From contig LN717261.1 of assembly GCA_001244265.2 (NCBI GenBank), forward strand, positions 806,001 to 870,000: DNA of 64,000 nt, in the 5' to 3' direction. This DNA comes from Microbotryum violaceum. Its lineage: Eukaryota. The position numbers were made by a program, and so were the translations under genes. The notes under the pieces were generated by a model that was not told where the DNA came from, searched no databases, and worked only from the letters and a program-made list of their open reading frames with translations. This document shows, in pieces, positions 3,259 to 59,390 of the stretch. How positions within the stretch are numbered: the stretch's first letter is position 1; the number at the start of each line of letters is the position of its first letter.

Positions 3259-3448
3259 TGATGAAATATTTGAGTCCGTGCCTCCTGGCACAAAGCTGGA
3301 GGTCGCAATTGGCTGGTTCGCAAAAGTCAAACAGTGCCACGGTGTTGACGTCGATGGGCGGTGTGGGGACAATTAGGTGAACAAATGTGAACAAAGGCTT
3401 CGAGCTGAGTGCGCCTCCTGTCGTTCCACATGTCACGTGCGCGCGCGG

Positions 3449-3705
3449 TCGTATCCTTACACATGTTGACACATGTAAGGATACGAGGGTGCGGTAAGGA
3501 CACAGAAATTTTGAATCACTACAAGTCTTGCAATACACATGCTATCGTGTAGTCCTTGCAGACACCATTCAGAAATAGTTATATGTTGATGTTACAATGC
3601 CAAGATGAACAGATTTGGTTGTGTATTGACCTTAACTCATGTGTAAGGATATATCCTTACATGTAGACAAGCCGCTTGCGCCCGACCTGACGTTCCTTAG
3701 AGGCT
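3449..3705. repeat. Palindromic subterminal motifs plus a 31-bp terminal-inverted-repeat (TIR)-like sequence
   Basis: 13-bp inverted arms at 3449-3461 and 3474-3486. Perfect 20-bp palindrome TGTAAGGATATATCCTTACA at 3642-3661. 3675-3705 matches the reverse complement of 16313-16343 at 30/31. Confidence 0.85.
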
Positions 3706-4052
3706 CAGCGCTCAGCCACTCAACGCCTCCCGAGGGTTGAACCACCCCAGAGTTGGAGGATTTTTTTTTCTCGCGGGTAGTCTCGTGTGATTTTTATTTT
3801 TTTCCCTGCGCGCGCGCGCGATTCTCGTGTCCACAAAGGCGCCTCATAAAAAGAATGGGGGGGGGGAGAGAAAAAAAAAAGAAAAAAAAGGGAGGGAAAC
3901 AAAAAAAAGGGGGGGGGGGAAGGAGAAGAGGGAGGGAAGAGAAAGAAAGAGAAGAAGAAAAAGAGGGAGCTCAAGGGGAAGGTGAAAAGGAGAAAGAGAG
4001 GAAGTGGTACGGAACAATTCATTTTGACGCCATACATCATATTACGCAGGTA

Positions 4053-7000
4053 TTATGAAGCTACAAAGTTGTGACACTTCTTTTGATGCCGAGCTCGGCC
4101 ATTCATCTCAGCCCTTGTCAGTCCTCTACAGAACCTTCGTGATTGTGGGTCGTTCGGATCCATCTCGTCTGTCAGCCCGAAAGGCTTCCCGCAGTCCAAG
4201 CACGCCCCGTCACACTCAGTCACCGATCCGTCATCGCTTAGTTTTGACCCCTTGCGTCGACAAGTAGTTTGACCACAGAATCGACGGTGCCTTGCCCCTT
4301 TTGTGGTACCCGCGCGCGTCAAAGCGCGGCTTGTGCCCAAGTCCGCGCTTGAACCAGCGTCGCTCGAGGCAGTTGCAACAAAGGGGCGAATGGATGACGT
4401 TGGAGGATCTGAGGCATCGACTTCTACCTCCATAAGCCTCCCCAAGACTGGCGGTTTGTGACCGAGTAATGGCTTAGCCGCTAGCATGCTAACATCACGA
4501 CCGCGGGAGGGGTTGGTAAGCAAAGCTTGAATCACTCTGACGTCGTTTCCACCCATGTTCATTGTGGCTTGAGCATTTGCCAGCGATGACCATCTCGATG
4601 CCCATGTATTGATGTGCTCTGGCATCTGTGTGATATTTGCGCTTCAGCTCAACATCACCATTCAGTGTGACACAGACGCGACATACTTTGTATACTCCGT
4701 TGGCATACTTGTTCCAAAGCTCGGTAATCTCCAATATCCGAGAATTTTGAGGAGCTCCCAGTCGTACCTTGCTTGAGAGATATCTGTATAGCGCTCGTTC
4801 GCTGGGTGTATGGACATGTAATACAGCGAATCGAGTACCCTGACGTTCCGCTAGCCAGTCGTGGCGAAGCTTGCGATCGGTTAGCAGCCGGCTTTGCATA
4901 TGCTGTATCGCCGACGTATTGATTTGCAGTAAGTTCCGTGGCGACCACTTGACGGGCTCCAAACGCAGAGTCCCGCGCTCGACGTGATAGGGCTCGATCA
5001 AAAAGCGCATTTGCGCTGTTGGCGACTGAACAGGTACGATGCCGAATGTTTCGGTGGATGGGGTGTAGAGCAGCGGGTTGACTATATCTGACACAGTGGT
5101 TGAGTGCCGTGGGAGAAATGCCGAGGTCTTGCGCCTTAGACGATGTAATTTCAGAGTGAGCCAGAGGTCCTAGTGCCCCACAAATGGTTTTCCGGTACGA
5201 TTGAACGTCCCAACCTGCGAATGCAAGGGATAGTGGGTGAGAAAGGTTGCCGCTTCTTCGAATCGCGATGGTGAAGTTGGACTGACCGTGAGATTGTGCA
5301 CTAGCACGTAGTCAGCCAAGCACGCATTGGCATGGCACGGAGAAACACCCGACATTGGAAACCGTTGGCGAAGGTTCCGGTGGATGCCTTCTTCGAGACT
5401 GTTGGTGCCGCGCTGGCAGGAATATAAACGGACACCGTCATCCGCCTTTCCATCGGGCCCTCCGCAAGGCCCAAGGTCGGTGTACAGCTCGATGCCAACT
5501 GGATCCGAGACTTGGCCTTTCCGAATCGCCTCAAGACATCTCTTCGCTGCCTTGTGCGCCGCTTCGTTGAAAAGTGGTTGCTTCGACTTCGCATCAACCG
5601 AGCTTCTCAAAGACCTCCCGGACCAAAGGCTCGAGAATGCCTGGCGGAGGGATCCATCGACGAACGCGTCTCCAAAGCTTCTTATTCCATACCGGCGAGC
5701 GGACCGCTTCTTCCCACGTCATTCCGAGTTTTGCTAGGCGAGCCTCCATCAGGAGTCGATCATCCGCATTCGGAATGAAAACCGCATCGGAGAAGGCGCG
5801 AGCAAAGGCTTGGCAGCACCATGTTTTTTGGACACATAGATCCGGTCAAAGAAATGCCAGAGATCGATTAGAATTTGCACAGCGGTATCGTCTGAGGAAG
5901 GGACTAGTGGAAGGGGATAGTTCGAGATACATACATCTGCTCCAGCCCCGGCGCCAGGACTGGGGCAAGTCTGTAGTAACTGACCTTTGATTGTTGCAGC
6001 CTTGCCCCAGATAGCTTTGCCAGCTGCTTCAGTCTTCTTGCAACGATCCAGTTGGAGGGCTTGTGCGATCTCTGCAGGCCCAACCATTTCACTGTCCTTA
6101 TCGTGATCGTCTATTTGTGCGTCCACATCATCTGTGCGATCGCTTTCGTTGGCGGTGGCAGAAACGGCAGCGTCGGAGGGCTTTTCTTGGATAAAAATCT
6201 CCGAGGCGTGATGCGAATCATGCGTAGCCGAAACGTTTGACGTCCACTGTGCTTCGGTCGGAACGGGCGCATCATCCAAGTCGACGACGAGAGCGCTAAG
6301 CTCGAGTACCAGAGAGAAGGAGTCTGCGGATTCTTGAACTGCGTTCGTGTCCTCGGCTGCCCGATGGTTTGAAGTCGCTTTCAAGTCGGCCAGGCTCTGT
6401 GGCGTGAAAGATCCGTTTTGATGAAAGTTGTACTCAGGAACCAGTGCGCCAGGGGTCAAGATCTGTGTGATGGCGATAATAGCGCGCGATTTGTCCCACT
6501 TGAAGCCATGGAAACTGGACGGTGGTTGGCAGGAAGAGTCAATTGATGAATCGACGGACTGGATTACACCGCGAGCGATCGGCCAGCCAGACTCGTACAT
6601 GACGGCGACTTGAGTGCCCACTCGTGGATTGGCGATCTTCGAAACAGGCCGCGAATGTGGCTCGGAAATCTTGTGGTAAAGACGCAGCGAAGCGTATGCG
6701 TCAAGCGCGGCATAGTCCACAAAGTGTTGGGGAAGCGACTCGTCGGCCCATTGCATAGATCGGCGGATGTTGTTATTCTTGGGTAAGTGTTTCAACAAGA
6801 AGCGTTCGCACAACCCGGCCAATGTCCGATGTCCGGGTCCTTTCTTCACTGAGTGACCTTGGCTGGCGGCGTGCTTAACCAACTCGAGACCGCCATGATG
6901 TCGAAGTGCTGGAGCGACGGCCACTGGATCCTCATCGGCTTCGTCCACGTTCCACATTTCCGCATGTGCGATGGCGTTGGCGATGCGTTTCAAGTCACCC

Positions 7001-9788
7001 GCTACGCCGACTCCGACCTTGACAATGTCGCTGCGCTGGAGGAATAGGACGAGCGGGTCGGGCAATCGGCCTTTGGCACATTTGCCGATGATTAAGGATA
7101 GCTGCCGCAAAGATGAAACAGAAAGTCAGTGAGAAAAAGAAATCCAGAGTCCGAAGCAGCAGATGACATACTTGTATCACATGAATGAAAAGTTCCCCCT
7201 CGAGTGATTCCCAGGCGAATTGCAACACATCGACCGCTATCCGAGGTGGCTGTTGGCGGGCTTGCTGACCCGCACCGGGGGGAGCGTTGCCCATTCTGCG
7301 TCGACACCGACCACTAGTTTCCCTTCTGGGGGGATGTTGTCCGCCATGACTTTCATCAGACGAGTCAAAGCGTACGGTGATTGCACCAAGGTCGGCGTTA
7401 TCCCCAGTGGCAACTTGAGAATGTCGTATTCAGAGGCAGAGTGCGACTGGACCCGTGGCGCGAGCGACGGAATCTTGCTCCTCAAGAAAGGGCCATCGGT
7501 GTCGGGTTGATCTGTGTAACAGATCGTGGGTGCCTCGTTACAATACAACTCTAGATGCTTGGTCATCGCTTCGAGCGAGGTCTCGAATGCCGAGTGGCCC
7601 TTTGTTGAGGTAAGCACGTGGGCGCGCACTTCGCCATATTCATTCCCGACCATGAGCAGTGCGATGAAGGGGGGAACCCCTTCAACCTTGGCAATCTGCT
7701 TCGGGACCGGCAACGATCGGGCTCGGGGCATTAGCTGCTTGCGCTACTAGCAAAGGGCAAGCACGGTTGGTGTTGTAAAGCTAACGTTACCTTGTAACTG
7801 TGATCGATGGTCATAATACTGCAGGGCTTTAGTGATTCAGCATGATTGAGAAGCGTTTCTTGTCTGAAAGACCAGCAGAACATGATCAGTAAACACGACA
7901 TCTACGTAACGTTACAGCCAACCAAGCACTCACTTTCTCATCACGGAATCATAGAACTCCTGAAGAACCTGAGAATTCGGTACGTGGCCGCAATTACCCG
8001 TCGGATCTTCCCAGTCTCCGAGAGCAGGATACAAGCTAGTTGATGGCAAGTCAGCCTCACGCGCCAAGATTGCCGATCGATAGTCCACCTCGAGTCGGTC
8101 ATGAGCGGCGCGATGTGCCGTGACCAATAGGTTCGCAAATTGCTTCGAACCCAATCCGAATTGGAAGGTTCCTCGCATGAGGTTCCAGACAACCGAGGTG
8201 ATTGCGCATCGATATGACAAGTGGAAAGGGAACATCGAATGAAGGGACGACGACAGTTGATCGAGCACCTCGGGCGACCAAGACCGGTATCGTTTATTGC
8301 ACTGCTTATTGTTACATCGATACGAGACCCCAATGAGGATCACCGAGTTGTTGAGATCGCATGCTCGACGAGGCCTGCCAAGAAAGCTGTCTCGTCGCAA
8401 TACGCCTTTCTTCAGAGTCGATTCAGTTTGCTGGCATTTGTCGCACACTAAGCCGGATCCTGCCGGCTGGTCTTCTGGTTGGCCTAATAACATGAGCGGG
8501 TCCAAATAAAAAAACGGCGGGTCGAAGATCTTGAGGTTCTGCCGGGCGCACCGGGTATCGTAAATCGACTCCAGATGGTTTTAGTCGGGAGCCAGCCATG
8601 CAGCATTTGGTGGAAGGGTTTGCTGGAACGATTCGCGCCGGACCCATTTGCGTGCTTGATCGTCTCCCGACGGGAACTGTAGAGGTCGGTCAACCAGGCC
8701 GGGTGTTCCCACCGACCTTGAGCTTTAATGGAACCACCGCCATCATCTTCCTCGTCGCCATCGAACGGATCACCGCCTCCCAACGCACAAAAGCGCATCA
8801 TCATCAGTGATAATTGGTTCGCGGGGAGGAGAGGTCCGTGGATGCGCAGTTTGAAGGTTTGTGATCGCGGGGTTTGCGCTTACTTCACTCATATTCGAAC
8901 GTGGATCCGAGCCAAAAGAGTCTGAATCGTCGGGCAATGCCAATCCGACCGACGTCGGAATCGAGCGCGACGTGGGGGTGGTCGAGACTGAGGCATCGGA
9001 TGCGGAAGGTATGGCAGACGAGCCATCTGGAAACGGAGTTTGGGGTGAAGTTGTTGCCGGTGCAAAGTTGAGAGTTGTTTGAGTCTAAGATTAGGAGCCA
9101 CAGACATGCATTAGTTTAGTCAGAAGGAATACGAGCGACGGGAATGTAGCCCGGCTCACAGTGTATACTTTTGCAGGGGGAAACTGTATGGGAAGATGCA
9201 GCACATTGCCTTTCTGACGTCAATGCCACTAACAGGTTTTGACACTCATGATCCCAATGATCTATTGCAAATCGGGCTTTCACAATTGACCTGCATCCGC
9301 TGACTCTGCTCGTCTAATATGAGTTGGCGTTGAGGCGCTCGCTCGGCCTCTAGCCTAGCTTTCTCCGCTTCCTTGAGTTGTCTTGCACGTTCATCATCAA
9401 GTTCTATTTCGGCAGCTTGCTGTGCTGCTCTCTCGGACTTGGCTATGGCCGCCTCTTCCTTCTCCTCCTCCGTCTTCCTCGGACGACCCTGAGGCCTGGT
9501 CGCTGCGGGCGCCGGGACTAAGCTACGGGGTCGACCTTGTGGCTTCTTGGTCGACTGATCAATTGCAGTCGATCCTGTATCCTGTCCATCAATATGTATT
9601 GAAAGCTCATCGAAGCGGCGCTTCGCGGCCTGAACTTGACTCGGGGTGTTCACGCTGTGTAGAGTGTTGACACAGGGGCCGATCTCGTTCTGGCATGCTG
9701 TCGATGCTGTCGTAGCCGAGGTGCCGACAACTTTGTCGTCCGCGTTATCGGCGCTTCGTTTTCGAAAGAAGCGTGACAGCAGTTGCAT
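4053..9788 (-). mobile_element. Dada-like DDE transposase with a DUF6729-like N-terminal region and an inserted DEDDy (WRN/DnaQ-like) 3'-5' exonuclease; frameshifted
   Basis: PRRACDLNNSVILIGVSYRC...FPFHLSYRCAIT (DUF6729-like). D1 in TIDHSYK (~7805), NEYGEVR, D2 in CYTDQ (~7510). Exonuclease motifs VGVDAEW, VGVAGDLKRI and YAALDAYAS. DxxH in IDLWHFF (~5860), SDPVG, E in RGTNSLEEGIH (~5390). GT-AG introns plus frame changes near 8550, 5810 and 5600. Confidence 0.8.
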
Positions 9789-11189
9789 CGTAGGATATGG
9801 CACGTTGCAGCATGAAGACAAGCGGTGGCCGCATGCGGCGCGCCTGATTGCGCCAACTCAAGTGCGCCTATGGGCCGCCGTTTGGGCAACAAATGGATTT
9901 GTGCGCCCGGGGCTACTTGCGCGTTACAATTCGTTTGTACGCGCGCCGAAAATCGTGCAATTGCGCGCCAAAGGGCCTTCATACGCGCGTCATTCACTCT
10001 TGGACGCACTTTTGGTCTCTAACACGCTCTTGAACCTGCGGACTTGCGCGCTTTCCAGGAAAAACATTTGTTTCTGGCCCCTATTGGCGGTCCACGCGCG
10101 TTTCGCTCACTGTTAGACTCGCTCGCCCCGCCGTATCCGCGCACGGGGCATTACACGCGCTACAGCGCGCTCATGCGCGCGCAACCTACTCAATCTACGC
10201 GCTTTTTGGTATTTTTCCAAAATAACCGAAAGATGATTTTGATATTTTCAATTTTCATAGCTAAATTCCGAGCCCCGCACTCCCCGCTCTTTACGATTTG
10301 CGCGCCTCGGAAGCTGCTTACGCGCGCTCGCAAACAGTTCTCACGCTCGCAGAATCGGATTCGGGATCGGTGCGCCGATTTCGAATGCAGATGCGCGCGA
10401 CCGGAAACACTCACACGCTCGCGGCGCTCTGATTCGCTCGCGGCTTTTTCTACTTGCGCGACAACCGACCCCGAGGAGGATTGCCTTTTCACTCCGCGGT
10501 GTGTATCTCATTTTCATGGCAGGGGCGTTCGCTCCGATTGCTAAGTCTTGATGTACTTGTAAATAGTGACATTGCTATGGTGTATTGGGTTGGTGTGGCT
10601 GTCGAAGCGTTCGAAGCTCAGGGCTGGGCATTCCGGCTCCAAAGTTGAGATCCAGAGAGCTAAGGGCTCGTTCCAGATAATTATTTGTCGGGGTGGGCCG
10701 ACAAATCCTGCACCGGTGCTCCCGGCCAAGAGTCTTGGTATGCAGCAGCAGAATCGTAAAATCGGCACTGGAAGAGTCTCTGCATCTGCTCCAGCTTGCA
10801 TTAGGAGGGCTCAAAGAGCTCCCAGCTTGCAACGTACCTGCACCCTTGGCGGGCAACTCCCTCTCCCAAGTCGGAATGATGCCATCTGCTTTTCTCATGA
10901 TAGCAGTTGAAGGCTGTTGAGTGAAACAGAGTCGTTATGAAAGCGGGGAATAACTGGACAAGGTTGACGTGGGGGCGGTGTGTGTGTGGAAGAAGGCGGC
11001 CGCGCGAGTCCGCGCGAGTATCGCGCGTGAGCTGGTGTGTCGCGCATGAACGAGGCTAGACGAGTCGCGGGCGCGCAAAAGCGTTCGGCGGGGCGGAAAG
11101 CGCCGGCCAAAGCGCGCGGCTGCCACGGCGAACGACATGCAGCCTCTTTGGCTTCGTTCCACAACGCTTGAGCCATACTTGAAAGCACG

Positions 11190-13569: not shown

Positions 13570-16134
13570 TCAGCGAGAGTAAGGCTGTTAGAGAAGATCG
13601 CAACTTCATCAGTGTCCTGACTACTACGTTACTCCATGCATGAAAAATTGATGGTTGGCTCACGTGGAACCCAGCCCCACGACCGGCATTCCTTTGAGGA
13701 CCGGTGCCATCAGTTGCAGCGCCCGCTGCACCCGCTGGTCCACCCGCAACGCCACCTGCTTGATGTCCTCCACGACCGCCCTAAACATAGTAAACCCTCG
13801 CGAGTCAGTCATTTTTTCTTAGAGGAAAGTGTAGATGGCTCTGAAAACAGACCGAGAACGCTCCCCTTGCCCCGCCTCTCATCCCACCCCTATGACCACC
13901 CCCCATCGCAACCCCGCCCCGCATAGGCGCCGCGAAGCTCCCCTCCCCACCCTGTCCAACAGGCGCTACCCCAGCCCCCATGCCACCCATGCCCATGCCC
14001 ATTCCCCCCATCGCAGGCATCCCGCCCATCGCAGGCACGCCCATCATCCCTCCCATGCCACCCATTCCTCCCATCCCCATCGTAGGATCGAATCCTGCGC
14101 CCATTCCCGGCATCATCATAGGATTCCAGGCGCCCCAACCCATTTGAGCGAAGAATTTGGACATGGCGTTAGGGTCGAAAGGGGCGTTCATATTGGGCAT
14201 ACCACCGACGGCTCCGGTGACACCGCCTAGAGCAGGGTTAGCTCCAAAGCCACCACCGGCTCCTGCGGGGCCGCCCATTCCGCCGCCACCGACACCACCT
14301 CCCATGAGGTTCATCCCTCCTGCGTGGGCGGCGGGGTTGTGGTGCGCTGCGTTCATGTGGCGCGTGTCGATTCCATAGTCGGGTCGTCGTTGTTCGCCTT
14401 TGGTTTGAGCTCGTTTGACCTCCAACTAAGAAAAGAACAGTGCACCAAGATCAAGATCCTTCCTTGAATTCTCGCCCGAAGCAGAACTAACTGACCAAAT
14501 TGCCATCCATGTAATGCGGTTGACTGTTTAAGACCTTCTCCGTACTTTCGCCCGATTCAAAGTTCACGAAACCGAACCCACGATGACGACCGGTTTCTTT
14601 ATCCATCATCAAGGTCGCGTCGGTGACGACGCCGAAGGGTTGCCAGAACGTACGGAAGGACTCGGGGGTGCAGGTTTGCGGGAGCAGACGGATGAAGAGT
14701 TTGTCGGATTTGGGGTTCGACGAACGCGGGACGGCGCGTTTGGGATCGATCTGCGATACGTTTAAGAAAAGAAGAAGAGCGAGGCGCTCAGTGCGAGTTG
14801 ACCCGGATCGAGCGTGGAAAGGGGAGCGAGCGCGCACCGTCTTTCCGTCCAAATAATGTTCCCCGTGCGCCAAGACCTTGTCCACCGCGGCCGTGGTCTC
14901 GTACGTCAAAAAGGCGAACCCACGCGAACGACCGGTCTCTTGATCACGCATGATGTTGGATTGGATGATGGGGCCGAATTGGGAAAAATACGTGCGGAGG
15001 GATTCTGAGCACATCGTCGGGTCGGGGTGAGTTGAGGGGGTCATGGATGAGTCGAGGTTGTGGGTGGGGTGCAAGGGGCTCACCCTCGTTGGTATCCCAG
15101 TTCAAACCACCAATGAACATCTTGCTGTATTGCTCGAAGAAGAGTCATGGGACAAAGACGACGAATACATACCGCCGGAGATCAGATGAATACAGCAGAG
15201 TGATTCAATGCGTTTGCGTGGGACAAAAGAGGGAAGAAGAACGCGTGAAAATTGATCAGCAACAACAAAGAAAGACAGAGGCCCTACCCGATAGATATTG
15301 TTTATGTATCGAAGACAAGGGAAGCGAGGACCTAGCGAGTTCCGGCTATAGAGTAGAGTAGACGTAGTAGCGGAACAAGTGCTGGTAGGGCAGACAGCTC
15401 CCTGAGACGACGATGGATAGGGTAGGGTAGGGTAGGGCAGCGTAGATCGAGAGGTAGACGATACGCCAACAAGGCCTAGGGCCGCTCGCAGCTCGTATAG
15501 GATATCTCGGGAGCGACAGAGGACAAGACGGTGCAAGGGTAGGATCCGTATGGGGGCGTCTGACGAACGCGTCAAGGACCGCTCGTCGTTGTCCTTCGCC
15601 CGTCTCGGTAAGTTGTGTTAACATCAAGTAGCAATAGAGTGATCACTTACCCTTCTTCAGTCGGATCAGGTCGGTGGTTGTTGTGCTGCGCCTGCTGAGG
15701 CTGTCCCATCATGGGGTTGGACACGCCCGCCGGTGCTCGGTTCTGTGCTTGCATAGCCATGCCGATGCCGATCGCTTGACCATGTTGTTGAAGCGCTTGG
15801 ATCGGGCCTCCTGAAGAAGCCGAAAAAGTAGGTTTCATATCCGCCGACGCGGAGGGTGTAGATGCAGTTACACCACCGGTAGGGGCGGTGTTGGGGGCGG
15901 GGCCAGGCGAGGTGGTTGCGGTGGTTGAACCGACAAGGACGACGGGCTTGGAATCTGGTTGCTCGTTGTCACCGTAGAGGTCGTCGTAGAGGTCGTCGTA
16001 GCCTGTGGGAAGCGGGCGTGTGTGCATCAGCGTCGGTCGCCCACGAGCGAGCGTCTCGTCTGCCACTAGAGCCACTGCGCCGCGTTGAGAGATGATTGCA
16101 CAGGGTGCCCAAACGTACCTTCTTGAGCTGCCAT
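13570..16134 (-). CDS. Two-RRM RNA-binding protein, HRP1/Musashi/hnRNP A-D type, with a Gly/Met-rich tail
   Basis: KMFIGGLNWDT, RSRGFAFLTY, IDPKRAVPR, RHRGFGFVNF, VEVKRA, C-terminal PYSR*. ATG at 16134 (MAAQE). Confidence 0.9.
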
Positions 16135-16343
16135 GATGTAGGAATGTAGGAGTAGATGGTGAGCGAGAGAGTGGGAGGAGTGGCAGGGGTGCAAGCACGA
16201 GCGACGGGTCGGCTAATAATGCGCTAAAATCTCATTTCTTTAGTATTTAGTGGTATTCTTCAATTTAGCTTTTTCTGGTCAGCGGTCAGCCGGTCAGCCC
16301 TAATTACTGATTAGCCTCTAAGGAACGTCAGGTTGGGCGCAAG

Positions 16344-19749: not shown

Positions 19750-22700
19750 TTATTTATTTATTTAACTGGGGCACATAAATTGCAATCCTTCGGGTTGGCT
19801 GGGACCGCTACAAAAAGAGCTAAAGGAGGTTATAAAGCAACGACGGCAAGCAGTTGGGTGAAAGTCAAACCCCTGCGCGCAAAGAGCGCTGCGCAGATCA
19901 AAACCCGCCGAGCACCTAACGCGGACTCCAACGGGCGGTGAATACTGCCGCCGCTTCACGTCCCAAAAGCGGGAGCGAAGATACTCGAAAACCAGGCAAG
20001 AGCGCCTAGAGAAAGAAGGGGGAGAATATACAGAAAGTCACGACTGGAAACACGGAGAACCAGGAATACTAAGGCAGAAAGGAGGGGAACACACCCGAGG
20101 GGCCCAGGGAGGGGGTCGAAGCCGGAGGTAGAGGTCCCCAGGGACTAACAGGCCGCAGCCAAGCCCCAGCTACTCGTCACCCCGACAGCGCCTGATGTCC
20201 TCCCTTGGCTGAATCTCGAGTGCTGGCTGTTGAGCCGTCGGGGCCGAGAGAAAAGCGATCCAGTACAACGAAACGAGCCTCGCCTTGACGCGAGGATATT
20301 GACCAGAAACGAGCGACCTTCCTTCCCGAGCCATGCCGTAGATCTTGACCAACGCGAACGAACGAACCATTCAACGGAGTCCAACACACGGCTTAGTAGT
20401 AAAAGGAGAAGTGGCTGAAGCGTAGTCAACAACCGAGCAACAGGAACGAGAAGAGGAAGGGAAGGGAAAAAAGGGGGGAAAGGAGAGGGAAAAACTTCAC
20501 AAAGCCTGGAAAAACTTCACAAAGCCTCCAACGCAAAGACAATCGACCTGGCTTGCCGATCCATCCAAGAACAAAAAGCCGCTACTGCGCAAAGTGGAGA
20601 GAGAGAGGGAGAGGTGCGCAGCCTTCCATCGGTCATCACACCTCCCAATCTCGAGCCCCAGGCACAAAACCCGCTCGAGAGAGAAAATCTCGCTCGAACG
20701 CTCTGAGTGCACTGGGGAGCGAGGGAGGGGCCACGACCTTGTCCAGCTCGAACCGCTGATGAACGTGCCAGCGGAGCAGGTGCAGCCGCTGGAAGCCGAT
20801 CGCGCAGGCCAGCCGAACCCACATCCATCTCGAGGTCGTTCTCCCACGACCCCGCAAAAGGGGAGCCCCATAGTCAGCTGCTCCGGAGTGAACGTCGACG
20901 GATCGACGTCGGTATCCTCGATGCCCAGCTTGTCGAACAGAATGCGAAGCACCCCACCCCAGAAGCTGGTCGAGTACGCGCACTCGAAGAAGTAGTGCGA
21001 CACCGTCTCGATGACCGCTGCATCGTTGCCGCAGAACAGACACGTCGGCGAAGAGGCATGACCCTGAGTACGCTGCCTCTTGCGCGTCGGCGTCACGTCG
21101 TACATGAGCCGCCAGTGGGTGTCCTGCTCCACAGCAGACGCAAACCGGTCATGGAAGCCATCTCCAGAAGCGCTTCCTATCGCTCTGAGAAGTCCCATCA
21201 CGGAAACGCTTGACACGATCCTCCCTCCCTGGGAACCGAACCACGTTCACAAGCCGACGAAGCTTGCGAATAGTGAACGGTCGGGTGAGCCCAAAGAAGT
21301 TGAAGCACCGAGGACGGGGAGCCTCCTTGAGAGGTATCCGAGCAGGTCGCAACGCGGTCTTGGGCAGCAAGGCTTTCGCCTTGAGCAACTGACCACGCGC
21401 GACCACACGTGCTCGTGCTGTAGGGCGGGTTCCTTAGAGTGCTGCCAGAACCCGCGTCGATGACCAACCAGAGCCCAGCCCTTCCCTTCGTCCCTCCAGT
21501 ACAGGTCCGCGATCTGCGCAAACTTCGCCACTGCGTCCGCATCGTCATATGCGTGCTTGGCACCTTCAGCATAGAGTGAAGGGAGGCGAGGCGGAAGCGA
21601 GAGCAATTCGGGGAGCGTAAGGAGTTCGGACTTGATGGTTGGAACTGTGACCCTGGCAGCTGCAACGACTGCCCCCAGCGCGTCGAGTCGCGATACAGCT
21701 TCTCGACCCGAGCCGTGCTGCTGAAGAACCCCCACGGACTGAAATCGCGGGTCGCAGCGACGAGGGACCTCCAGCTCTCGCGAGCTAGGGGCGCCCAGAT
21801 CGCCTCATTCGAGCCCGCCACAGCATCCCAAAATCGAAGCGCCACCGAATGAACGATGTCGCCGATTGAAATCAAGCCCAAGCCACCGTCCTCCCGAGCC
21901 TGGAACACGAAATCGCGAGCGACGGCATTTCGCCCTGCTCCTCCCCAAACAAAATCCGTAAGTGCTGTCTCCGCCGCCTTAATGAACCATTGAGGCGGTA
22001 TGTCGAAGGACAGCACGTGGAGGACCGTCGAGATGATGTGAGCGTTGGCATAGAAGACCTTCCCACTCGGCGAAAGTGTCCGGTCTCCAGCGGCGCGGGT
22101 CTTGGCCTTGATCCTGTCAAGAACATGGGTCCAAAACAGTTTCGAGTCACCGTGGTAAAAGAAGGAATAGCCGCACCACTTGAAGCTACCCCCCTCCTGC
22201 ACCGTTGGCAGCGCCTGCGCAGTCTCGTCCCGAAGCCAGTTCGGTCCGAGTGGTAGCACCAGCGTCTTGTCCGTGTTGGTCTTCCCGTTGGTTGCCTCGT
22301 ACCACGTCTGCGACAGTGTTTGCAGCTTCGACAATGCCGCCGGTGACTCCACCACCACCACAGCATTGTCGGCAAACACCAGATGCGTAAGCTGCGCACG
22401 CGGCCCCCCTGGCCACACCTTCTGCAGGCCGAGCGCGATCCCGTGCCAAACGAGGGTGTCGAGGAAGGGCTGGAACGTGATGTTCCAAACCGGGCACGAG
22501 AGGGGATCCCGCTGACCGAGACCACACAGCAACCGCACCAAGTCCGTGGGGAACCCATTGATGAGGTAGCGCACCCCCAGAGTCTCGGGATCGTACAAAG
22601 CGCGCAGCAGGGAAATGAAACGCTCACCAAAGCCAAAGGCCTCGAAGACGTCAAAGATCCATGCGTGATCGACCCGATCGTACGCGCTCTGCTGATCCAA

Positions 22701-25700
22701 GGACAAGAGGGCGCCCTCGGGGAAAACTTCAGTGCCTAGCGACTTGAGTTTTTCGAGAAGGAGAGTGAGATGACTTCCCGCGTCTGCTGAACGTCTTGAT
22801 GGCATGAACCCGTGTTGCGCCGGCGGCAAAAGCTCGCCGAGCACCCCATTGAGTCGCGCCACCAAGACCTTGCTGAGGACCTTGTAGGTCGTCTCGCGCA
22901 GTGTGATCGGTCGGTATGCCCCCAGTGATTTCAGATTGGGCCCCGGTTTATTCTTGGGCAAGAGCCGCACCAGCCCCTCTGCCAAGGACACTGTCATTTT
23001 GCCGCCCTCCCACTCGAGTTAAACAAGTCCAACAGTTTGGGAGCAAAGTAGGTTGGCAGCGCCTTGAAGAGCTCCTACGGAATGCCCGAGGGCCCCGGTG
23101 ATCGCCCCGAATCCGTCTTCTTCAACCTCGAGGAGGGGGAAGGGCTCGTCAAGCGCCACTCTCGCTTGACGAGGCAGCCGACGACCGAACGTAGGGTCCG
23201 AGCGGTGGTCATCGTAGCATTTTGCTGCGCAAATAGGGTCGAGCAGGGACCAACGTGCGTTTGTCGGGTCGCCACGAGCTGGGTCCGGCATGAAGAGCGA
23301 CTGCGCGTGCCGTGAAGCAATACCCAGCGCCTCCTGCATGTCAACGGTCTCGGTGCCATCCACATCCTCCAGCGAGATGATGCTCGTCTGGTGACTCCGG
23401 CGGTTGAGACGCATGCGAATGCTTGCCGATTGACCTTCCCTCGAGTCGACTGACGGCACATGCGCACGGATGCGCAGCCACTGAGCCTCCTTTACCGCCA
23501 ACTGGTCCAACCGCGACTTGGCAAAAGCATACGCATCGCGCTCGGTCTCATTCATGTGCTCACCGCGTGCCTCCAAAGCCTCCATGACGGATTGACTCTT
23601 GGCCCGCAGTCAGCGCATGTTGGCACAAGTCGAGCGGTATTGTGCATGGCCAGTGACTGCAACCGCCCGCAGAGCGGCGTCATAGACGTCGCCGAGCGGA
23701 GCAGTCCCCTCAAGCCTTTGATAGACCTTGTCGACGACCCCGGGAATTGATGCGACAAAGTCTTGATTGTCAAAGACTGTTGGGTTAAGCCTCGAAATGA
23801 AATCGCTCGTAGAGGGAAGAGAAAGGGGGGGTTCGGCATCAGCGTTCGATGTAGGCAATGCGAAAGTCGCAACTACAGGTCTGTGGTCCGAACAGGGCGC
23901 GTCGAAGAGCGTAGAAGCGCTCAACAACCAGTTTGCCCAACTGCATTGGACAAGAATATAGTCAATCCGCGACCACGAGCAAATCTTTTGCTCCTCCCCT
24001 CTACCACGGTAGTGAGGACGAGTGAATGCGGGGGTGCAAGAATGGACATGTCGGACCGTGTTGAGTGCCTTGAACGCGATCTTTGACAGCAAGGTCTGCC
24101 AGTGCAATACAGGAGTCCAAGCGTGATCGGTGATGGACACTTGGTCGACCGATACATCCGGACAATCATTGAGATCGCCGGCCAAGATCCGAAGAGTCCT
24201 GGGTCTCGGGGCGTTGAAATGCAGGAGCCCAAAAAAGTTGCGACAATTGTCCTCCTGTACCAGCGCGTACATGTTGATGATCTCAACATTGAGCTCCTCA
24301 AGACAAAACACCGAGCGCAGAAGCCGACCGTCGAAACGAGGAGCGCCTGCAAAGACGACCGGGGTAGAGGAAAGGAGATGGCCCGCCAAAGGTGAGCCAT
24401 TGGGTATGAGGGTAAGGACATGAGGTGTGAAACGAACACAATCTCCTAACCAAGCACTCTCGAAGCCTTCGCGCAACACGTTGTAGCTGAGGTGGTGCTC
24501 TTGCAGGAGAATGGCCGCAGGGGCCGGCCGAAGGGTTCTGAGATAGCGGATGATTTTGACTTGGTTGACTGCGTTCTTGATCGATTGGACGTTAAACGTC
24601 AACACGGTGAGGGACTCAATCATGATTAAATCAGATCAGCGCCGCCCCCTTCGAATTTGGGCACCTCGGACCTGTAACCCCCGGAACTGTTGCCCCCTGA
24701 TGCACCGTGGATCATGGCGGATCCCGCCCGGGTGACACATTGGTTGCCGGGTGCCGAGGCCAAACGGATTGTCGACGGGCGCAGAGGACTCGTCGAGGCC
24801 GGGGTCGCGTTCGAGGTCGAGGTCGAGGTTGGCAAAGATCCCGACGTGCCACCGGACGAAGGCGAAGTCGGCGTCGATCCCGTAGTTGAGGTCGAGGCTG
24901 GGGTCGAAACGGACGCCGCCGTCGTCGTCTGCGTCTCGGCGCCGAGTCGAGCGGTGGCGTGTGTCATGGTGGCGCCTCGAGTGTTGTCCCCCTCCGGTTC
25001 GGTGGAAGTGGTCGATGCGGAGTTGTCCGAGTTGCGGGTCGCTGGGTCTTCGGGGTTAGCACGAGGTCCCAATTCAATCATGTTCGTACCAGAGGCACGA
25101 GAGGCCAATACAGTGTGCCCACCGTGCTTTCCGTTCTTTCCGGCAACTCGGAAGCCGGTCGTTGAAGTCGAAGTCGAAGCCCCTGGAACAGGGGCGGCGG
25201 AGGCCGTAGTCGAAACCGGCTTCCTGCAAGCGCCCCACTGGTGACCGGCGCGATCGCAAAGTGCGCAGTAGTGCGTCTCGAATTCGTGCCGCAAGCCATA
25301 CTTGACGCCCAGGATCTCGATTTCTTGCGGCAAGGCAGCGTTGAGCGCAGCCTTCTGCGTCTCGGCGGAACCTTGGATCAGCCCGTAGGCGAAGGTACGC
25401 GCAGTGGAACCCGTCTTCGGTCATGGCCATCGGATCACCATTCGGATCGACCGCGAGTCCCCGCTGTAATTGCATGAGGGTATACCCTTGCGTGCGACCA
25501 GCGCGGCCGAAGGAGGAAGTGAGAGCATCATTGAGAGATTTTCGGAGCACGGACGCGGGAATCGTGCTGGAAGAGGAGGGTAAGGTGAATCGCACCTGGA
25601 CGACGTGGTTTAGGGGGGAAACGCTCGGGAGCTCGGTGACCATCTCTTTTCCGTGATAGGGGAATGGACCCGCTGCAGCGGCTTCGAGACAGGCCTGGTC

Positions 25701-26347
25701 GGATTCGAACACGAGCTCGTACATATGACGAGCAATCGGGAACCTCTTTGTTGCCTTCGTCACAATTGGGTTCAGCTTCACACATTTCGAGAAGAGCTTC
25801 TCGACCTCGGGGTCAAGCTCGGCGCCCTCGGGCCGCGCGAACATGAATGGCGTCTCGGCCAGCCCAAAGTGCTTGCGCAGCGCAGTCTGTACAAGGCCTC
25901 TTAAGGACCCAGTACCATCCATAATGACTCGGATCACGTTGGAGGCCGGCATCGCGTCGTTTCGTACCGCCCTTTGAGCAGCTCGTGCGAGAGCCGGCGC
26001 CTGCGAAGGCGGCTTGGAAGGGTCATACAACAGTACCATCAGCCGGCGGGTCGACTTGGAGGATGGTACGATGCCAAGGGCTTTGAAGACCTTCTGCATC
26101 GACTTCTCATGGTCCAATCAAGCCTGAGAAGCCTGGGCAAACCAGGCTGGAGGATTGACGGTTCCTCCGGCGACCGAATCACTCAATCGCATGTTGAGTG
26201 ATGCGTCACTCGTGCCAGTACCGGCCGACGGATCGTCGGGGGGCGCCGGGGGGTTGCCGGGGGGATCCGGCATCGCTTCTTGTTCCTTGTCCAGTTGTTC
26301 TTGGCGCAGCTGGCGGTACACTGAACACACTACAACACAAAACGTCA

Positions 26348-37076: not shown

Positions 37077-39298
37077 TCAAGCCCACATATCCGCCCCGGA
37101 TCCACCGACACTCATCATCGGCCCCGAACCCATCATGCCTCCCGGCGGACCCACCCCACCCATCTGCCGATCGGGCCCCCCAATCTGTGCCGACTTGTTG
37201 ATCATCACATTCTGCAAGTTGACCAACTGCGTCGTCCATCGCTCAAGGGACGCATACCGCCTCACCTCGACGGCCTTGTGGCGAACCAATTCGAGGCGTT
37301 GGGTCACTTGGTCGATTCGTCCCTGAATCTTGTCGTCGAGGATCAGGGAAACGAGGATCGCTTCGACGCTTTCGGATGGGATCGAGAGCTGGCGCGCGAG
37401 GTAGGCGATTTCGATGCGCGTGTAGGGCTTGATGATCTCAAGGATCCATTGCGTGCGTAATGAGCGCAGGACCTCGTCGATGTAGCCGCGGATGAAAGGG
37501 TCGTCCATAATCGTCGAGCGATTGTCTGTAGCATCAAGAAACGAGTCAAAATCAAGCAGCTCACTCTGAGACCTTTGGGACCTACTTCTCAAAATCCTCT
37601 CGGCCTCGTGCACATCGCGCCCCTGATACGCCGACACGAGATTCGTCATGGCCATGATCTCGGGATCGTTCTTGTACGGCTTGGTCTCTTGCGAATCAAA
37701 GGGGTTGATCTCGCTGTCCATGAGCATGTGCGCGAGCACGAGGTACTTGAGCACCTGAATGCGCTGCGGGGACCCGGCTTCGTCGTAGCACTTGAAGGAT
37801 TCAAAGAAATCGATCTGGGCCTGACTCCAATTCCCTGCGAGCGCAACCAAATCATTCAGCACACCAGGTAAAGTAGGAGCAAAAAAAGAGGGAGCTCGGC
37901 TCACTCTCAGACATGTACATCTTGCCACCGCACTCGCGAATGACGCCTTGGATCCTCGGATGCGGGATTGCCGATCGCACGCGTAGACTCTTCTCGTAAA
38001 TCTCCTGTATGTAATGGATCACTCCATCATCGTCAGCGCAGCCCTTGGCTGGATATGAATACCACACCTACTCTCAGTTTTTTGTTGTTCTTCATCTCGC
38101 CGTACATCTGGATCTCGATCGCGTAGACCTCGAGCTGCATTGTGCCCTTGGAACTGTCGACGTCGGCGCCATCATCGGTCGGCGCACACGAGGCATGCAG
38201 TTCCTTCAGAATCTAAATCAAAGAAAGCCAGCGATAAGCCACGGAGCAAAGGTGTCTAACACCGCCTTTTCTCATAAAGGCTCGCCTTATTGAGACGGGT
38301 GTACTCTTTTCGATCGAGCCACAGCTTGGCCAGTTTCAGGTTCGTCTTTGTGCTCAGTCGCTGCAGGGAGCAAACAGAATAAAGAGCACAAATCAGTGTC
38401 CTTCACCTAAAATTGCCACCCCCACCAAAGATCTGACTGACCTCATTCTTGGCCTCTTCCAACGCGCTCATCGTGACTCCATAAAATTCCTGCATCTTGA
38501 CCGTCTCCAACCCATGCTCGGCACTAACATAGTCCAAAATCCCATTAATGCTCTTTTCGGCCATATTCCTCGTCACACCTTTTTTCGTATAGGTCAGCAA
38601 GGTCTTGTAGTAGCTCAACGCGTCGTCGTAGCGCTCGAGTCGAAAGGTCAGTTTGGTCATTTGTTTCAACGCTTTGAAGCCGAATTCGCCTTGTTCGCCC
38701 GCGGAGGCTTCGTTGTCGACGATCTTTTGGAACGAGGCCAAGGCGAGGTCGGGTGTATCCCTTTGAGCTATGGGAAGAGTAAGTTCGGAGTCGAAAAAGG
38801 GGGAACAGAGCCGGGGCCAGAGATCCCAGAGCCGGAGCGGTCGGTCGGACGGGAATGATCAGCGATCCGAAGCAGTCTTGCTCCCACTAGCCCAGCCCAG
38901 CCACTATGGGCTCACACTTGGCGTTGTAGTAATCATTCTCAACATCGACGATATCCTCTTCGTTATCGGATCCTTCGTACTCGAAGCCATAGTCCTGTAG
39001 AACGAGATGGAACGCGCGTCGTTTTACGAGTCAGGAGTCGTCCGTCGAGGAACACAAGCTTGTGTCGGTGAGCTAGCCCCCATAAAAGATTGTAAACTGA
39101 CCTCATCATCCTCATCCATCATCTACACGCAGGACCAGACTCCAAGTCAGCTCCGCTAATTGAACTCCAAGTGGGGGGCGGAGAAGAACCGGTTACATCG
39201 TGCAACTCACAAAGTCCTCGTCGTCAGACCTGGGGACAGGGGCAGAGAACAGCTTCAGTTGGGTTGTTCCTGTTTGGGTTGCTCAGTCCAACTCACAT
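37077..39298 (-). CDS. CSN2: COP9 signalosome subunit 2
   Basis: [85 protein letters not shown] (PCI domain). Confidence 0.96.
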
Positions 39299-39734: not shown

Positions 39735-41369
39735 TCAGGCCTTCACCCGCTCTTCCTCTCCCTTCAACGCGGCCAACTCCCTCCTCCTCATCTTGGCTCT
39801 CGCCGGAATCGACCGGAAAACCTGGCACACGTCCTCCTTCTGAATGACCAACTGACCCTCGTTCGAGCACTTGGTCCTCGACCTCAATTCGTGACACAGC
39901 GCATCGACATCGCATTCCTCGAACAAAGGATGCGAACAAAGTTTCGCCCAAGCGGTTTGACAAACCCATACGTCCTTGACGTCGACCTGGTTCGAAAGCG
40001 AAGCGGGCCTCCACGGCGCGGGGAGCGCACAAGACATTTGACTGAAATCGCATTCGGGTTTGTTGCAGGGTAATCGACCGTTGGGGAGAGGGGGTGGCGT
40101 TCCACGATCGCATTCGGGATCGTCGAGGTCGGCGGTCGAATCCCGGTCGAGGTCAGGGACCGTTGACGACGTTTCCGTATTGGCGACCGTTTCAGGAGGG
40201 AGCGTGAAGAACGCCGGGTCAAAAAAGGATTGGTAGAGATCCGGCATCGGTAGGTCCTCGTATTCGAACGGAGTCTCGAAATCGAAAGCGACGTCGATCG
40301 GCTTTTTAAGCGAGACGACCATTCCACCGGGGGTGATCGGCATCGCCGGTCGTTGAGCGGAGCAAGTTGGAAGCGCGGCCAGTTCAGGATCGATCGAGGC
40401 CATGGCGTACGAGGCCAGGTCTTCCAAGCTGTTGCCCGATTGGGGTTGGGGTCGCACAGGTAGCGGGTACGGAGCAGACGGTAGCGCCATCGGTGGGGTC
40501 GACGTCGCATAGTTCATCGTCGGAGGCAGCGCCGAAGGTGGGGGAGGGTGAAGCACCAGCTGGGGCTTGACGTCCTCGGCAACGTGAGGGAGACGAAGAT
40601 TTTCGACAGAAGGTTGTTGTTGGGCCTTCGCAGATTTGCTGGACTGCGAATCGTGAGGGCTCAAAGTCGGAGAACTGGCCGAAGGCGCAGCAGTCCCAGT
40701 ATCCAATTGCTCCATCGCGGTCTCGGGCACCGGTTGCCCCAGTCGAAGCGCCTTGTTTTCGGCAATCAACCTGAGAGGACCGACAGAAAAAGCAGATCCC
40801 AGCTCAGTTGGAACCTTTGAACGCCCATCTTCGGAGTACTCACATATCGATCAGCTGAGTCTGGCGAGCTAGCTGCGTCGCCTGTCTTTGGACCTCGACC
40901 TCTATTTCTTGCATATGTCTCTCCTTGCGCTCGCGGAACGATCTCTGCGCGGCGCGGTTCTGCAACTTGCGTTTGGCCGTCTCTTCATCGCCCTCGATGT
41001 CTGCGTTAGAGAATGGAAGGCAAGGAAGGTTCGATGTAGGCGGGTGAGTGAGTGAGAGAGGGAAATATCATCCGGGGAGCGTGGGCGGAGCGCGGCCGGC
41101 CATAAGCGGGCAGCGGGCGCGAGCGCGGGCACAGGAGGACGGTGAGCGCATGAATGGGTGGTTAGGTGGGTGGGTGGGAGAAGTGCATTTGTCAGCCCTC
41201 CGTCGCCGAGCTCGTGCCGCTGTCCAGAGCCTACGGTTACACATATCAACCTTTACCCGGGTCACAAGTAGATACGAAGCAACTCACCCTGATCAGCTTT
41301 CCGTTTCCGACCCCTCTTACTAGGTTCGGTCGACGACGGGGTGGGGGACGTGCTTGTGCCGGCCTTCAT
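39735..41369 (-). CDS. AP-1-like bZIP transcription factor (Yap1/Pap1 type) with a C-terminal cysteine-rich domain
   Basis: KRGRKRK...KRKLQNRAAQRSFRERKERH. C-terminal CQTAWAKL...DVDALCHELRSRTKCS. Confidence 0.88.
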
Positions 41370-45025: not shown

Positions 45026-49899
<4,874 letters not shown>

Positions 49900-53921: not shown

Positions 53922-55468
<1,547 letters not shown>

Positions 55469-59098: not shown

Positions 59099-59365
59099 TC
59101 AATGTGACCGTGCACCAGTCCGCCCGCCATGGCTCCCAATGTGTGGTAGGGTAGAACCACCGCCGGTACGACTCGGGTGCACGGTCACATTGAAGTTTGC
59201 CTTGCGGCAGTGACAGACGCTACCAAATTGGAAAACAAAAGAAAGTTTGGTTGAACTGAGAATTGAACTCAGGTCCACTCTATTAATCAGATTTGCTCTG
59301 ACCGCTGAGTTACTCAAACCGCGGAAATAGATGAATAGGACGGTGCACCCGAGTCATACCGGCGG
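59099..59365. mobile_element. MITE-like nested inverted repeats
   Basis: 59160-59186 and 59339-59365 are inverted (25/27). 59099-59116 and 59176-59193 form a perfect 18-bp inverted pair. The interior is AT-rich. Confidence 0.7.
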
Positions 59366-59390
59366 GGTCGTGGGAGAACGACACTTCAGT

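Follow-up and report, generated by a model that had tools for sequence, protein, structure and literature searches.

A minus-strand gene in a fungal contig raised the question whether a transposon protein can carry an exonuclease inside its own catalytic core, and to which group of transposons such a protein would belong. The gene lies in a stretch of 64,000 nucleotides (64 kb) of Microbotryum violaceum (assembly GCA_001244265.2, contig LN717261.1, positions 806,001 to 870,000), which was analysed as a whole and is called the window here; all coordinates refer to it. In an original prediction, made from the letters alone, the gene was described as a Dada-like transposase with a DEDDy exonuclease inserted in the catalytic core. 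The coordinates proposed there (4053..9788) were exact: the gene runs from an ATG at 9788-9786 to a TAA at 4055-4053. The gene reading also stood, but the prediction did not mention that the frame is broken by four frameshifts and one TAG codon. Our analysis indicates that locus 4053-9788 is very probably a decayed Dada-type DDE transposase pseudogene with a WRN-like DEDDy exonuclease inside its catalytic core, in a Microbotryum-like basidiomycete genome.

In the raw stop-to-stop list of open reading frames (ORFs), the gene is divided over nine pieces in three frames, two of which led to its homologues. The piece with the match to Pfam domain DUF6729 identified one longer protein, P0001 of Microbotryum silenes-dioicae (1005 amino acids (aa), 52% identity). 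A 458-aa piece identified P0002 of Paxillus (1473 aa), which contains both DUF6729 and the exonuclease domain DNA_pol_A_exo1. A search with P0002 yielded 75 proteins including P0002 itself, nearly all from Agaricomycetes and one from Phenoliferia; both Pfam domains were present in 42, only the exonuclease in 15, only DUF6729 in 13 and neither in 5. For the family profile 57 of 76 proteins, with lengths of 1150-1750 aa, were retained; 18 shorter or longer proteins and P0001 were dropped. The Phenoliferia protein (P0066) was used in part, as its gene model lacks the region of the first catalytic D (D1) and part of the zinc finger. Both Pfam domains were found in all five homologues scanned except P0066, which was without DUF6729.

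The matches of the gene to this profile, frame by frame, are collinear, and five GT...AG introns bring back collinearity where it is interrupted (Table 1). A read-through of 1700 residues, in which the motif residues are numbered, was made by placing an X at the four frameshifts and at the TAG. It aligned to the profile of 57 homologues in a single collinear alignment (931 bits, E value 8e-284, profile positions 5-1442 of 1470), a match between sequences that is far beyond chance. The intron at 5286-5215 is in frame and without a stop, and mimics coding sequence in the raw ORF list. Two further candidate introns lie in the non-conserved N-terminal part. The first, at 8888-8777 (112 nt, GTGAAG...GAG, weak acceptor), may be an intron or a fifth frameshift; the second, at 9290-9085, is uncertain as well.

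Along the read-through the parts follow each other in the order two AT-hooks, four-cysteine finger (inside DUF6729), D, D, ExoI/II/III, DxxH and E. Thus the D, D, DxxH and E motifs, with the three exonuclease motifs between the second D (D2) and DxxH, are all present as had been predicted and show conservation across the family. The pseudogene has retained all of its catalytic residues, which are kept in 48-55 of the 57 homologues. A non-conserved DDE triad, named beforehand as a finding that would speak for a different interpretation, was not what we found: D533, D615 and E1299 are conserved in nearly all homologues (Table 1). The finger cysteines C343, C346, C386 and C391 are kept in 45, 47, 48 and 37 of them, respectively. 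GRP motifs also open the family consensus, as in the AT-hooks of the window gene. The C-terminal tail has the family consensus CxxCxxxxC, onto which a CCHC pattern could not be mapped. In Pfam, the two domains expected from the original prediction were both recovered, DUF6729 with a significant match (Table 1) and DNA_pol_A_exo1 with 23.3 bits, where the cut-off is 23.6. The latter score was obtained on piece 5752-7125, which holds the ExoII/III half only, and it remains just under the cut-off because the domain is split.

The relationship of this domain to WRN was seen at the level of both the gene and the family. The ExoII-ExoIII piece (6652-7101) matches the mouse WRN exonuclease (2e6l, E 7e-5), and a search of PDB sequences with the family profile found exonucleases only and no transposase (2e6l, E 2.7e-35; EXD2, 1.2e-20; Mut-7, 1.8e-13). 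Behind the exonuclease lies a beta-rich domain that is conserved family-wide; it matched no Pfam family, and no description of it was found. That these parts are inserted in the core, as the original prediction had it, could be seen from two exonuclease-less relatives from the Mucorales that align on either side of them. The second D lies 12 residues ahead of DxxH in P0181 of Apophysomyces sp. (D230 to D242xxH245) and 38 residues ahead of it in P0192 of Apophysomyces ossiformis (D432 to D470xxH473). Read-through residues 380-628 align to residues 1-243 of P0181 and residues 1141-1606 to 242-687, and therefore about 510 residues, comprising the exonuclease, the beta-rich domain and a linker, are inserted between the second D and DxxH.

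Structure models were made for homologues with and without the exonuclease. In the model of P0019 from Amanita inopinata (predicted local distance difference test (pLDDT) 80.5, predicted template modelling score (pTM) 0.63), D156 is located in a strand and D226 directly past another strand. Residues 265-456 form a compact domain and residues 472-553 a beta-rich one; behind a disordered stretch come a strand, D657xxH660, a helical region and E808 in a helix. Using Foldseek, the inserted domain matched WRN exonuclease 2fbx with E 1.1e-11 and a template modelling (TM) score of 0.86 by target. A Foldseek search for kin of the transposase with an exonuclease-bearing model was swamped by exonuclease matches, and the exonuclease-less P0192 was folded instead (pLDDT 72.5). 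As in P0019, its D1 is in a beta strand and its D2 just past one. The best PDB match of P0192 was the transposase of ISCth4 (6xg8, E 2.8e-4, 462 columns), which we take to be an IS256-family element; the next were the P element transposase (6pe2, E 0.026), Mu transposase and retroviral integrases. In the Atlas, the P0192 core had a TM score of 0.67 to a chordate cluster of which 90% of the members contain DUF6729, and of approximately 0.4 to MULE, Transposase_mut and IS66 clusters. Clusters with DUF6729 are commonest in Chordata and Basidiomycota. A cnidarian cluster, in which an OTU protease domain (49% of members) and DUF6729 (10%) both occur, had a TM score of 0.53 by query to the transposase core.

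The four changes of frame are indels, because there is no room for introns at these places. Since the 1376-codon Copia ORF at 45389-49516 (4.1 kb), which served as a control for assembly quality, is unbroken in the same window, we regard these lesions as genuine and take the gene for a pseudogene. Because of the four frameshifts and the stop codon, the transposase cannot be produced from copy 4053-9788. It could be argued that the gene is intact and active and that the interruptions are assembly or sequencing errors, especially as every catalytic residue is retained and TCG is not depleted relative to other parts of the window, on which ground decay resembling repeat-induced point mutation was rejected. 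This is improbable, as there are five independent lesions, none of which, the four frameshifts included, lies in a long homopolymer, and the Copia ORF argues against a generally faulty sequence. Moreover, the closest relatives, from three Microbotryum genomes, are themselves either fragmentary (184-552 aa) or, in one case, chimeric with a reverse transcriptase, and in a quick tree the window sequence is on a long terminal branch (1.85, against a median of 0.79).

Decay was also apparent among the relatives of the pseudogene. When the DUF6729 piece was run against 1.84 billion representatives, 313 matches had E <= 1e-3 and 135 of them E <= 1e-10, the 313 being representative clusters at 50% identity, of which 150 were listed with details. 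Many of these 150 are short fragments; Apophysomyces proteins without exonuclease are among them. Of 144 further proteins, 14 span the nine profile landmarks in full and 82 have only the finger or the finger and D1, which fits a family consisting mostly of partial gene models or of copies in decay. Nearest to the window sequence are fragments from M. silenes-dioicae, Microbotryum saponariae and Microbotryum lychnidis-dioicae. M. silenes-dioicae contributes five gene models, each on a contig of its own (52-87% identity), and all of them span query residues 45-97. Protein P0001 of this species is a chimera, in which the N- and C-terminal ends of a Dada-type transposase surround a reverse-transcriptase insert; this suggests that a long interspersed nuclear element (LINE) landed in this copy of the transposase. 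Other genomes with several copies are those of Arthromyces matolae (7 named proteins) and Mycena pura (5). Single-copy status without element ends had been put forward as evidence against a transposon: the family proved to be multi-copy, with at least five loci in one Microbotryum genome, and the ends are undefined. In the quick tree (25 rows) the window sequence groups with proteins of Phenoliferia, Rhodosporidiobolus and Sporobolomyces, with a Shimodaira-Hasegawa-like approximate likelihood ratio test (SH-aLRT) value of 99.

The assignment to Dada was made by comparison with the published description (Kojima & Jurka 2013, PMC3706591). According to the available text of that paper, Dada proteins combine a DDE triad with DxxH, which comes behind the second D, and have two fingers, one of CCCC type at the N-terminus and one of CCHC type at the C-terminus. 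The elements have no terminal inverted repeats but only short subterminal ones, generate target-site duplications of 6-7 bp and insert in U6, U1 or tRNA genes, all Dada with defined ends being located in small-RNA genes. MuDR, hAT, P, Kolobok and IS256 are given as distant kin and, by HHpred, integrases and Mu transposase. In Dada from Laccaria and Ectocarpus a DEDDy exonuclease is present between the second D and DxxH. Two statements in the original prediction, that some fungal and algal Dada carry an exonuclease and that several Dada families target tRNA and snRNA genes, are thereby confirmed. Dada has already been reported in four fungal phyla (Muszewska et al. 2017, PMC5751038, available text). 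Literature searches on Dada with exonuclease and on DEDDy with transposon gave the 2013 paper as the only relevant one, and in a term search a 2022 paper on fish Dada (PMC8869645) was without mention of exonucleases. As far as can be judged from its translation, the window gene has the published features of a Dada protein except the C-terminal CCHC pattern.

Several points weigh against our interpretation. Membership of Dada was derived from a published description and not from an alignment to curated Dada sequences, and for the C-terminal CCHC finger no clear counterpart was seen. In Foldseek, the similarity to transposases has low TM scores (0.20 by query, 0.41 by target), and E <= 0.001 was reached in two matches only. 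Scans for inverted and direct repeats revealed neither ends of the element nor a target-site duplication nor repeats of subterminal type, and in the 64 kb there is no tRNA gene (ARAGORN) and no Rfam match at gathering score. Finally, the role of the exonuclease is one that we infer. The search for a boundary of the element was negative in other respects too. A second copy was not found in the 64 kb by blastn or tblastn, no inverted repeat closely brackets the gene in the repeat scan, and Rfam at E <= 5 gave no small-RNA match or fragment between 1500 and 12500. The only strong inverted pair consists of 31 nt (30/31 matching; 3675-3705 and 16313-16343) with its arms 12.6 kb apart. It was rejected as a pair of terminal repeats, as it encloses a host RRM gene in addition to the pseudogene, its flanks show no duplication and the similarity ends at 31 nt. 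An ORF with a weak, LINE-like endonuclease match lies directly next to the right arm.

We also considered membership of a DDE superfamily other than Dada (KDZ/Zisupton, MULE/MuDR or IS256-like). In an Atlas feature search the zinc-finger piece was near KDZ CxC4/CxC5 clusters (scores 0.91-0.93), and MULE, Transposase_mut and IS66 clusters (TM about 0.4) and ISCth4 are structural neighbours of the transposase core. Similarity to IS256, MuDR and P is itself a property of Dada, however, and in the available text (PMC3706591) the position of the exonuclease has been published for Dada only, and the finger-D1 and D1-D2 spacings of Dada-U6_DR resemble those of the window gene. Furthermore, Pfam gave no match to a KDZ, MULE or Mutator family in five full-length homologues (E <= 1) or in nine pieces of the window (E <= 0.1). 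On these grounds another superfamily is quite improbable. It is hardly credible that the locus is a gene of the host rather than a mobile element, whether a transposase that was domesticated or a repair exonuclease of WRN type that has extra domains: although ends, a target-site duplication and a second copy are lacking in the window and many relatives are named simply '3'-5' exonuclease' in the databases, the gene is broken, its relatives are multi-copy (at least five loci in M. silenes-dioicae, 7 proteins in A. matolae, 5 in M. pura), many of the 150 listed are short fragments and the window is rich in transposable elements.

Taking the locus as a Dada-type pseudogene, a function can be proposed for the protein that an intact copy would encode. 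The two AT-hooks and the four-cysteine finger (DUF6729) would bind DNA, and the RNase H-like core, with D533, D615, E1299 and DxxH, would cleave and transfer strands. Where transposon or target ends are cleaved during transposition, the exonuclease might trim the 3' ends or take away nucleotides that flank them or are mismatched. Recessed 3' ends are a substrate of WRN-type exonucleases, which makes such a 3'-trimming role plausible. The same role in 3'-end processing was proposed by Kojima & Jurka, who wrote in the available text that the exonuclease 'likely' processes cleaved 3' ends (PMC3706591). Copy 4053-9788, if mobile at all, would move only in trans. Whereas this role is inferred, the architecture, its conservation, the insertion and the decay of the gene were observed directly.

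It is conceivable, though in our opinion rather unlikely, that the basidiomycete Dada with exonuclease form a large distinct branch that has lost small-RNA targeting and in which the exonuclease and the beta-rich domain are an obligatory step of an IS256-like reaction. The observations that can be offered for this are that there is no small-RNA gene within the 64 kb and that the module is present in every long relative of the branch. Among the long proteins listed from the scan with the DUF6729 piece, the exonuclease is present in most and absent from a few, the Apophysomyces proteins for instance. If true, the proposed reaction would represent transposition chemistry as yet undescribed in eukaryotic elements, for example trimming of the transferred or flanking 3' end.

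The exonuclease-in-core architecture itself has already been published, though it is little studied, and its occurrence in a Microbotryum-type lineage is an extension of its range. As a dead copy, 4053-9788 adds nothing new on mechanism; intact relatives suited to probing the exonuclease are P0120 of Rhodosporidiobolus, P0146 of Sporobolomyces and P0002 of Paxillus. In this family of transposases, DUF6729 is a marker of the zinc-finger region. Literature searches found no paper on DUF6729 or PF20499, and none linking DUF6729 to Dada. This link is useful for annotation, as databases label many members only as '3'-5' exonuclease'.

Table 1. Positions of the parts, introns and lesions of the transposase pseudogene in the window, from the start codon to the stop codon; counts refer to the 57 homologues of the family profile
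Feature	Position	Strand	Remarks
Whole transposase pseudogene	4053..9788	-	1700-codon read-through; 5 well supported introns and 2 uncertain
Two AT-hooks, GRPR	9536-9525 and 9488-9477 (9477..9536)	-	N-terminal exon, read from sequence
Frameshift 1	8562..8565	-	Fits loss of one base; closest Microbotryum protein uninterrupted here
Four-cysteine zinc-finger candidate (C343, C346, C386, C391)	8299..8445	-	CxxC-x39-CxxxxC
Pfam DUF6729 match	8047..8436	-	E 4.4e-10; profile 74-198 of 229; ORF piece 7933-8580
Intron, 70 nt, GTGAGT...CAG	7864..7933	-	Join restores profile collinearity
First catalytic D, D533 in TIDHSYK	7803..7805	-	D in 52/57, gaps in the other 5
Intron, 47 nt, GTAACG...TAG	7744..7790	-	Alternative acceptor at 7735
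Second catalytic D, D615 in CYTDQ	7510..7512	-	55/57
WRN-like DEDDy 3'-5' exonuclease domain	6676..7314	-	Split by frameshift 2 and one intron
ExoI, D685/E687	7302-7294	-	48/57 and 50/57
Frameshift 2	7240..7243	-	Within exonuclease, between ExoI and ExoII
Intron, 70 nt, GTATGT...CAG	7102..7171	-	Within exonuclease
ExoII, D764	6996-6994	-	50/57
ExoIII, Y858/D862	6714-6700	-	51/57 each
Beta-rich domain after exonuclease	6451..6633	-	Profile alignment; strands 472-553 of P0019 model
Poorly conserved acidic/low-complexity linker before DxxH	5900..6450	-	Equivalent P0019 557-616 disordered in model
DxxH, D1141/H1144, DLWH	5854..5865	-	55/57 each
Frameshift 3	5809..5812	-	Directly after DxxH
Frameshift 4	5598..5600	-	Collinear profile match changes frame
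Catalytic E, E1299 in GTNSLEEG	5392..5394	-	E in 54/57, gaps in the other 3
Intron, 72 nt, GTCAGT...CAG	5215..5286	-	Gap in both homologues compared
In-frame TAG	5170..5172	-	F in 20, Y in 19 and D in 12 of 57
Intron, 61 nt, GTATGT...CAG	4626..4686	-	Join YK|MPEH matches family FYKLPEH
Cysteine-rich C-terminal tail	4065..4304	-	41% identity to residues 944-1002 of Microbotryum P0001

The flanks of the gene contain several repetitive sequences. Downstream, about 40 bases after the stop codon, there is a long low-complexity tract with a purine/pyrimidine bias (3849-4010; G and A runs on the plus strand), after which a (CG)n run is found at 3808-3822. Two palindromes, at 3442-3493 and 3638-3660, 400-600 bp past the stop codon, share the word GTAAGGATA and its complement. 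Allowing one mismatch, this word occurs 14 times in the window, where 5.2 occurrences are expected, and 5 of the 14 are at these palindromes. Upstream of the ATG, GCGCGC-type words cluster at 9838-10394 and 11001-11113, among them four weak copies of a 29-nt unit at 9917-10326, with 69-72% identity to the reference copy. These words and units could be binding sites or subterminal repeats.

The remainder of the 64-kb window is rich in transposable elements. The Copia ORF at 45389-49516 contains gag, integrase and RVT_2 and belongs to an element that is probably young; broken Copia pieces are located at 54328-57906. LINE-type elements at 20500-26117 and 59331-61241 have RVT_1, zf-RVT and a weak endonuclease match under the Pfam cut-off. 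Host-type genes encode a two-RRM protein (14490-15101), a PCI-domain protein (37080-38018) and a PAP1-like transcription factor (39738-40850).

Among known systems, WRN exonuclease (2fbt, 2e6l), EXD2 and Mut-7/Nibbler share the DEDDy fold and the ExoI/II/III residues with the domain in the window. These are host enzymes for repair or RNA processing, whereas the window domain sits inside a transposase core. With ISCth4 (6xg8) and the P element (6pe2) there is 12-13% identity and a low TM score, and kinship is at the level of the fold only. The Mucorales proteins P0192 and P0181 agree with the window protein in D, D, DxxH and E and have 28-31% identity to it on both sides of the insert, but lack the exonuclease, the beta-rich domain and the linker.

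Animal Dada (Dada-U6_DR and others) resemble the window gene in the DDE triad with DxxH and in the four-cysteine finger upstream of D1. They have no terminal inverted repeats, and none that closely brackets the gene was found in the window scan. Compared with Dada-U6_DR, as far as given in the available text of the published description, the finger is spaced CxxC-x39-CxxxxC in the window and Cx4C-x34-CxxC in Dada-U6_DR, the distance from the last finger cysteine to D1 is 142 versus 135 residues, and that from D1 to D2 is 82 versus 68 (70 in P0192). From D2 to E there are 176 residues in animal Dada, which have no exonuclease, and 684 in the window. In addition, animal Dada are found in U6, U1 or tRNA genes with duplications of 6-7 bp, whereas the window contains no such gene.

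Compared by description, the greatest similarity is to Dada-1_LB and Dada-2_LB of Laccaria bicolor and Dada-1_ES of Ectocarpus siliculosus. Like the window gene, these have the DDE triad with DxxH, an N-terminal cysteine finger, introns and, between the second D and DxxH, a DEDDy DnaQ-like exonuclease in which every catalytic residue is present. The Laccaria elements and the window copy also have a basidiomycete host in common; the window copy differs from all three in being a pseudogene and in belonging to a Microbotryomycetes-type lineage.

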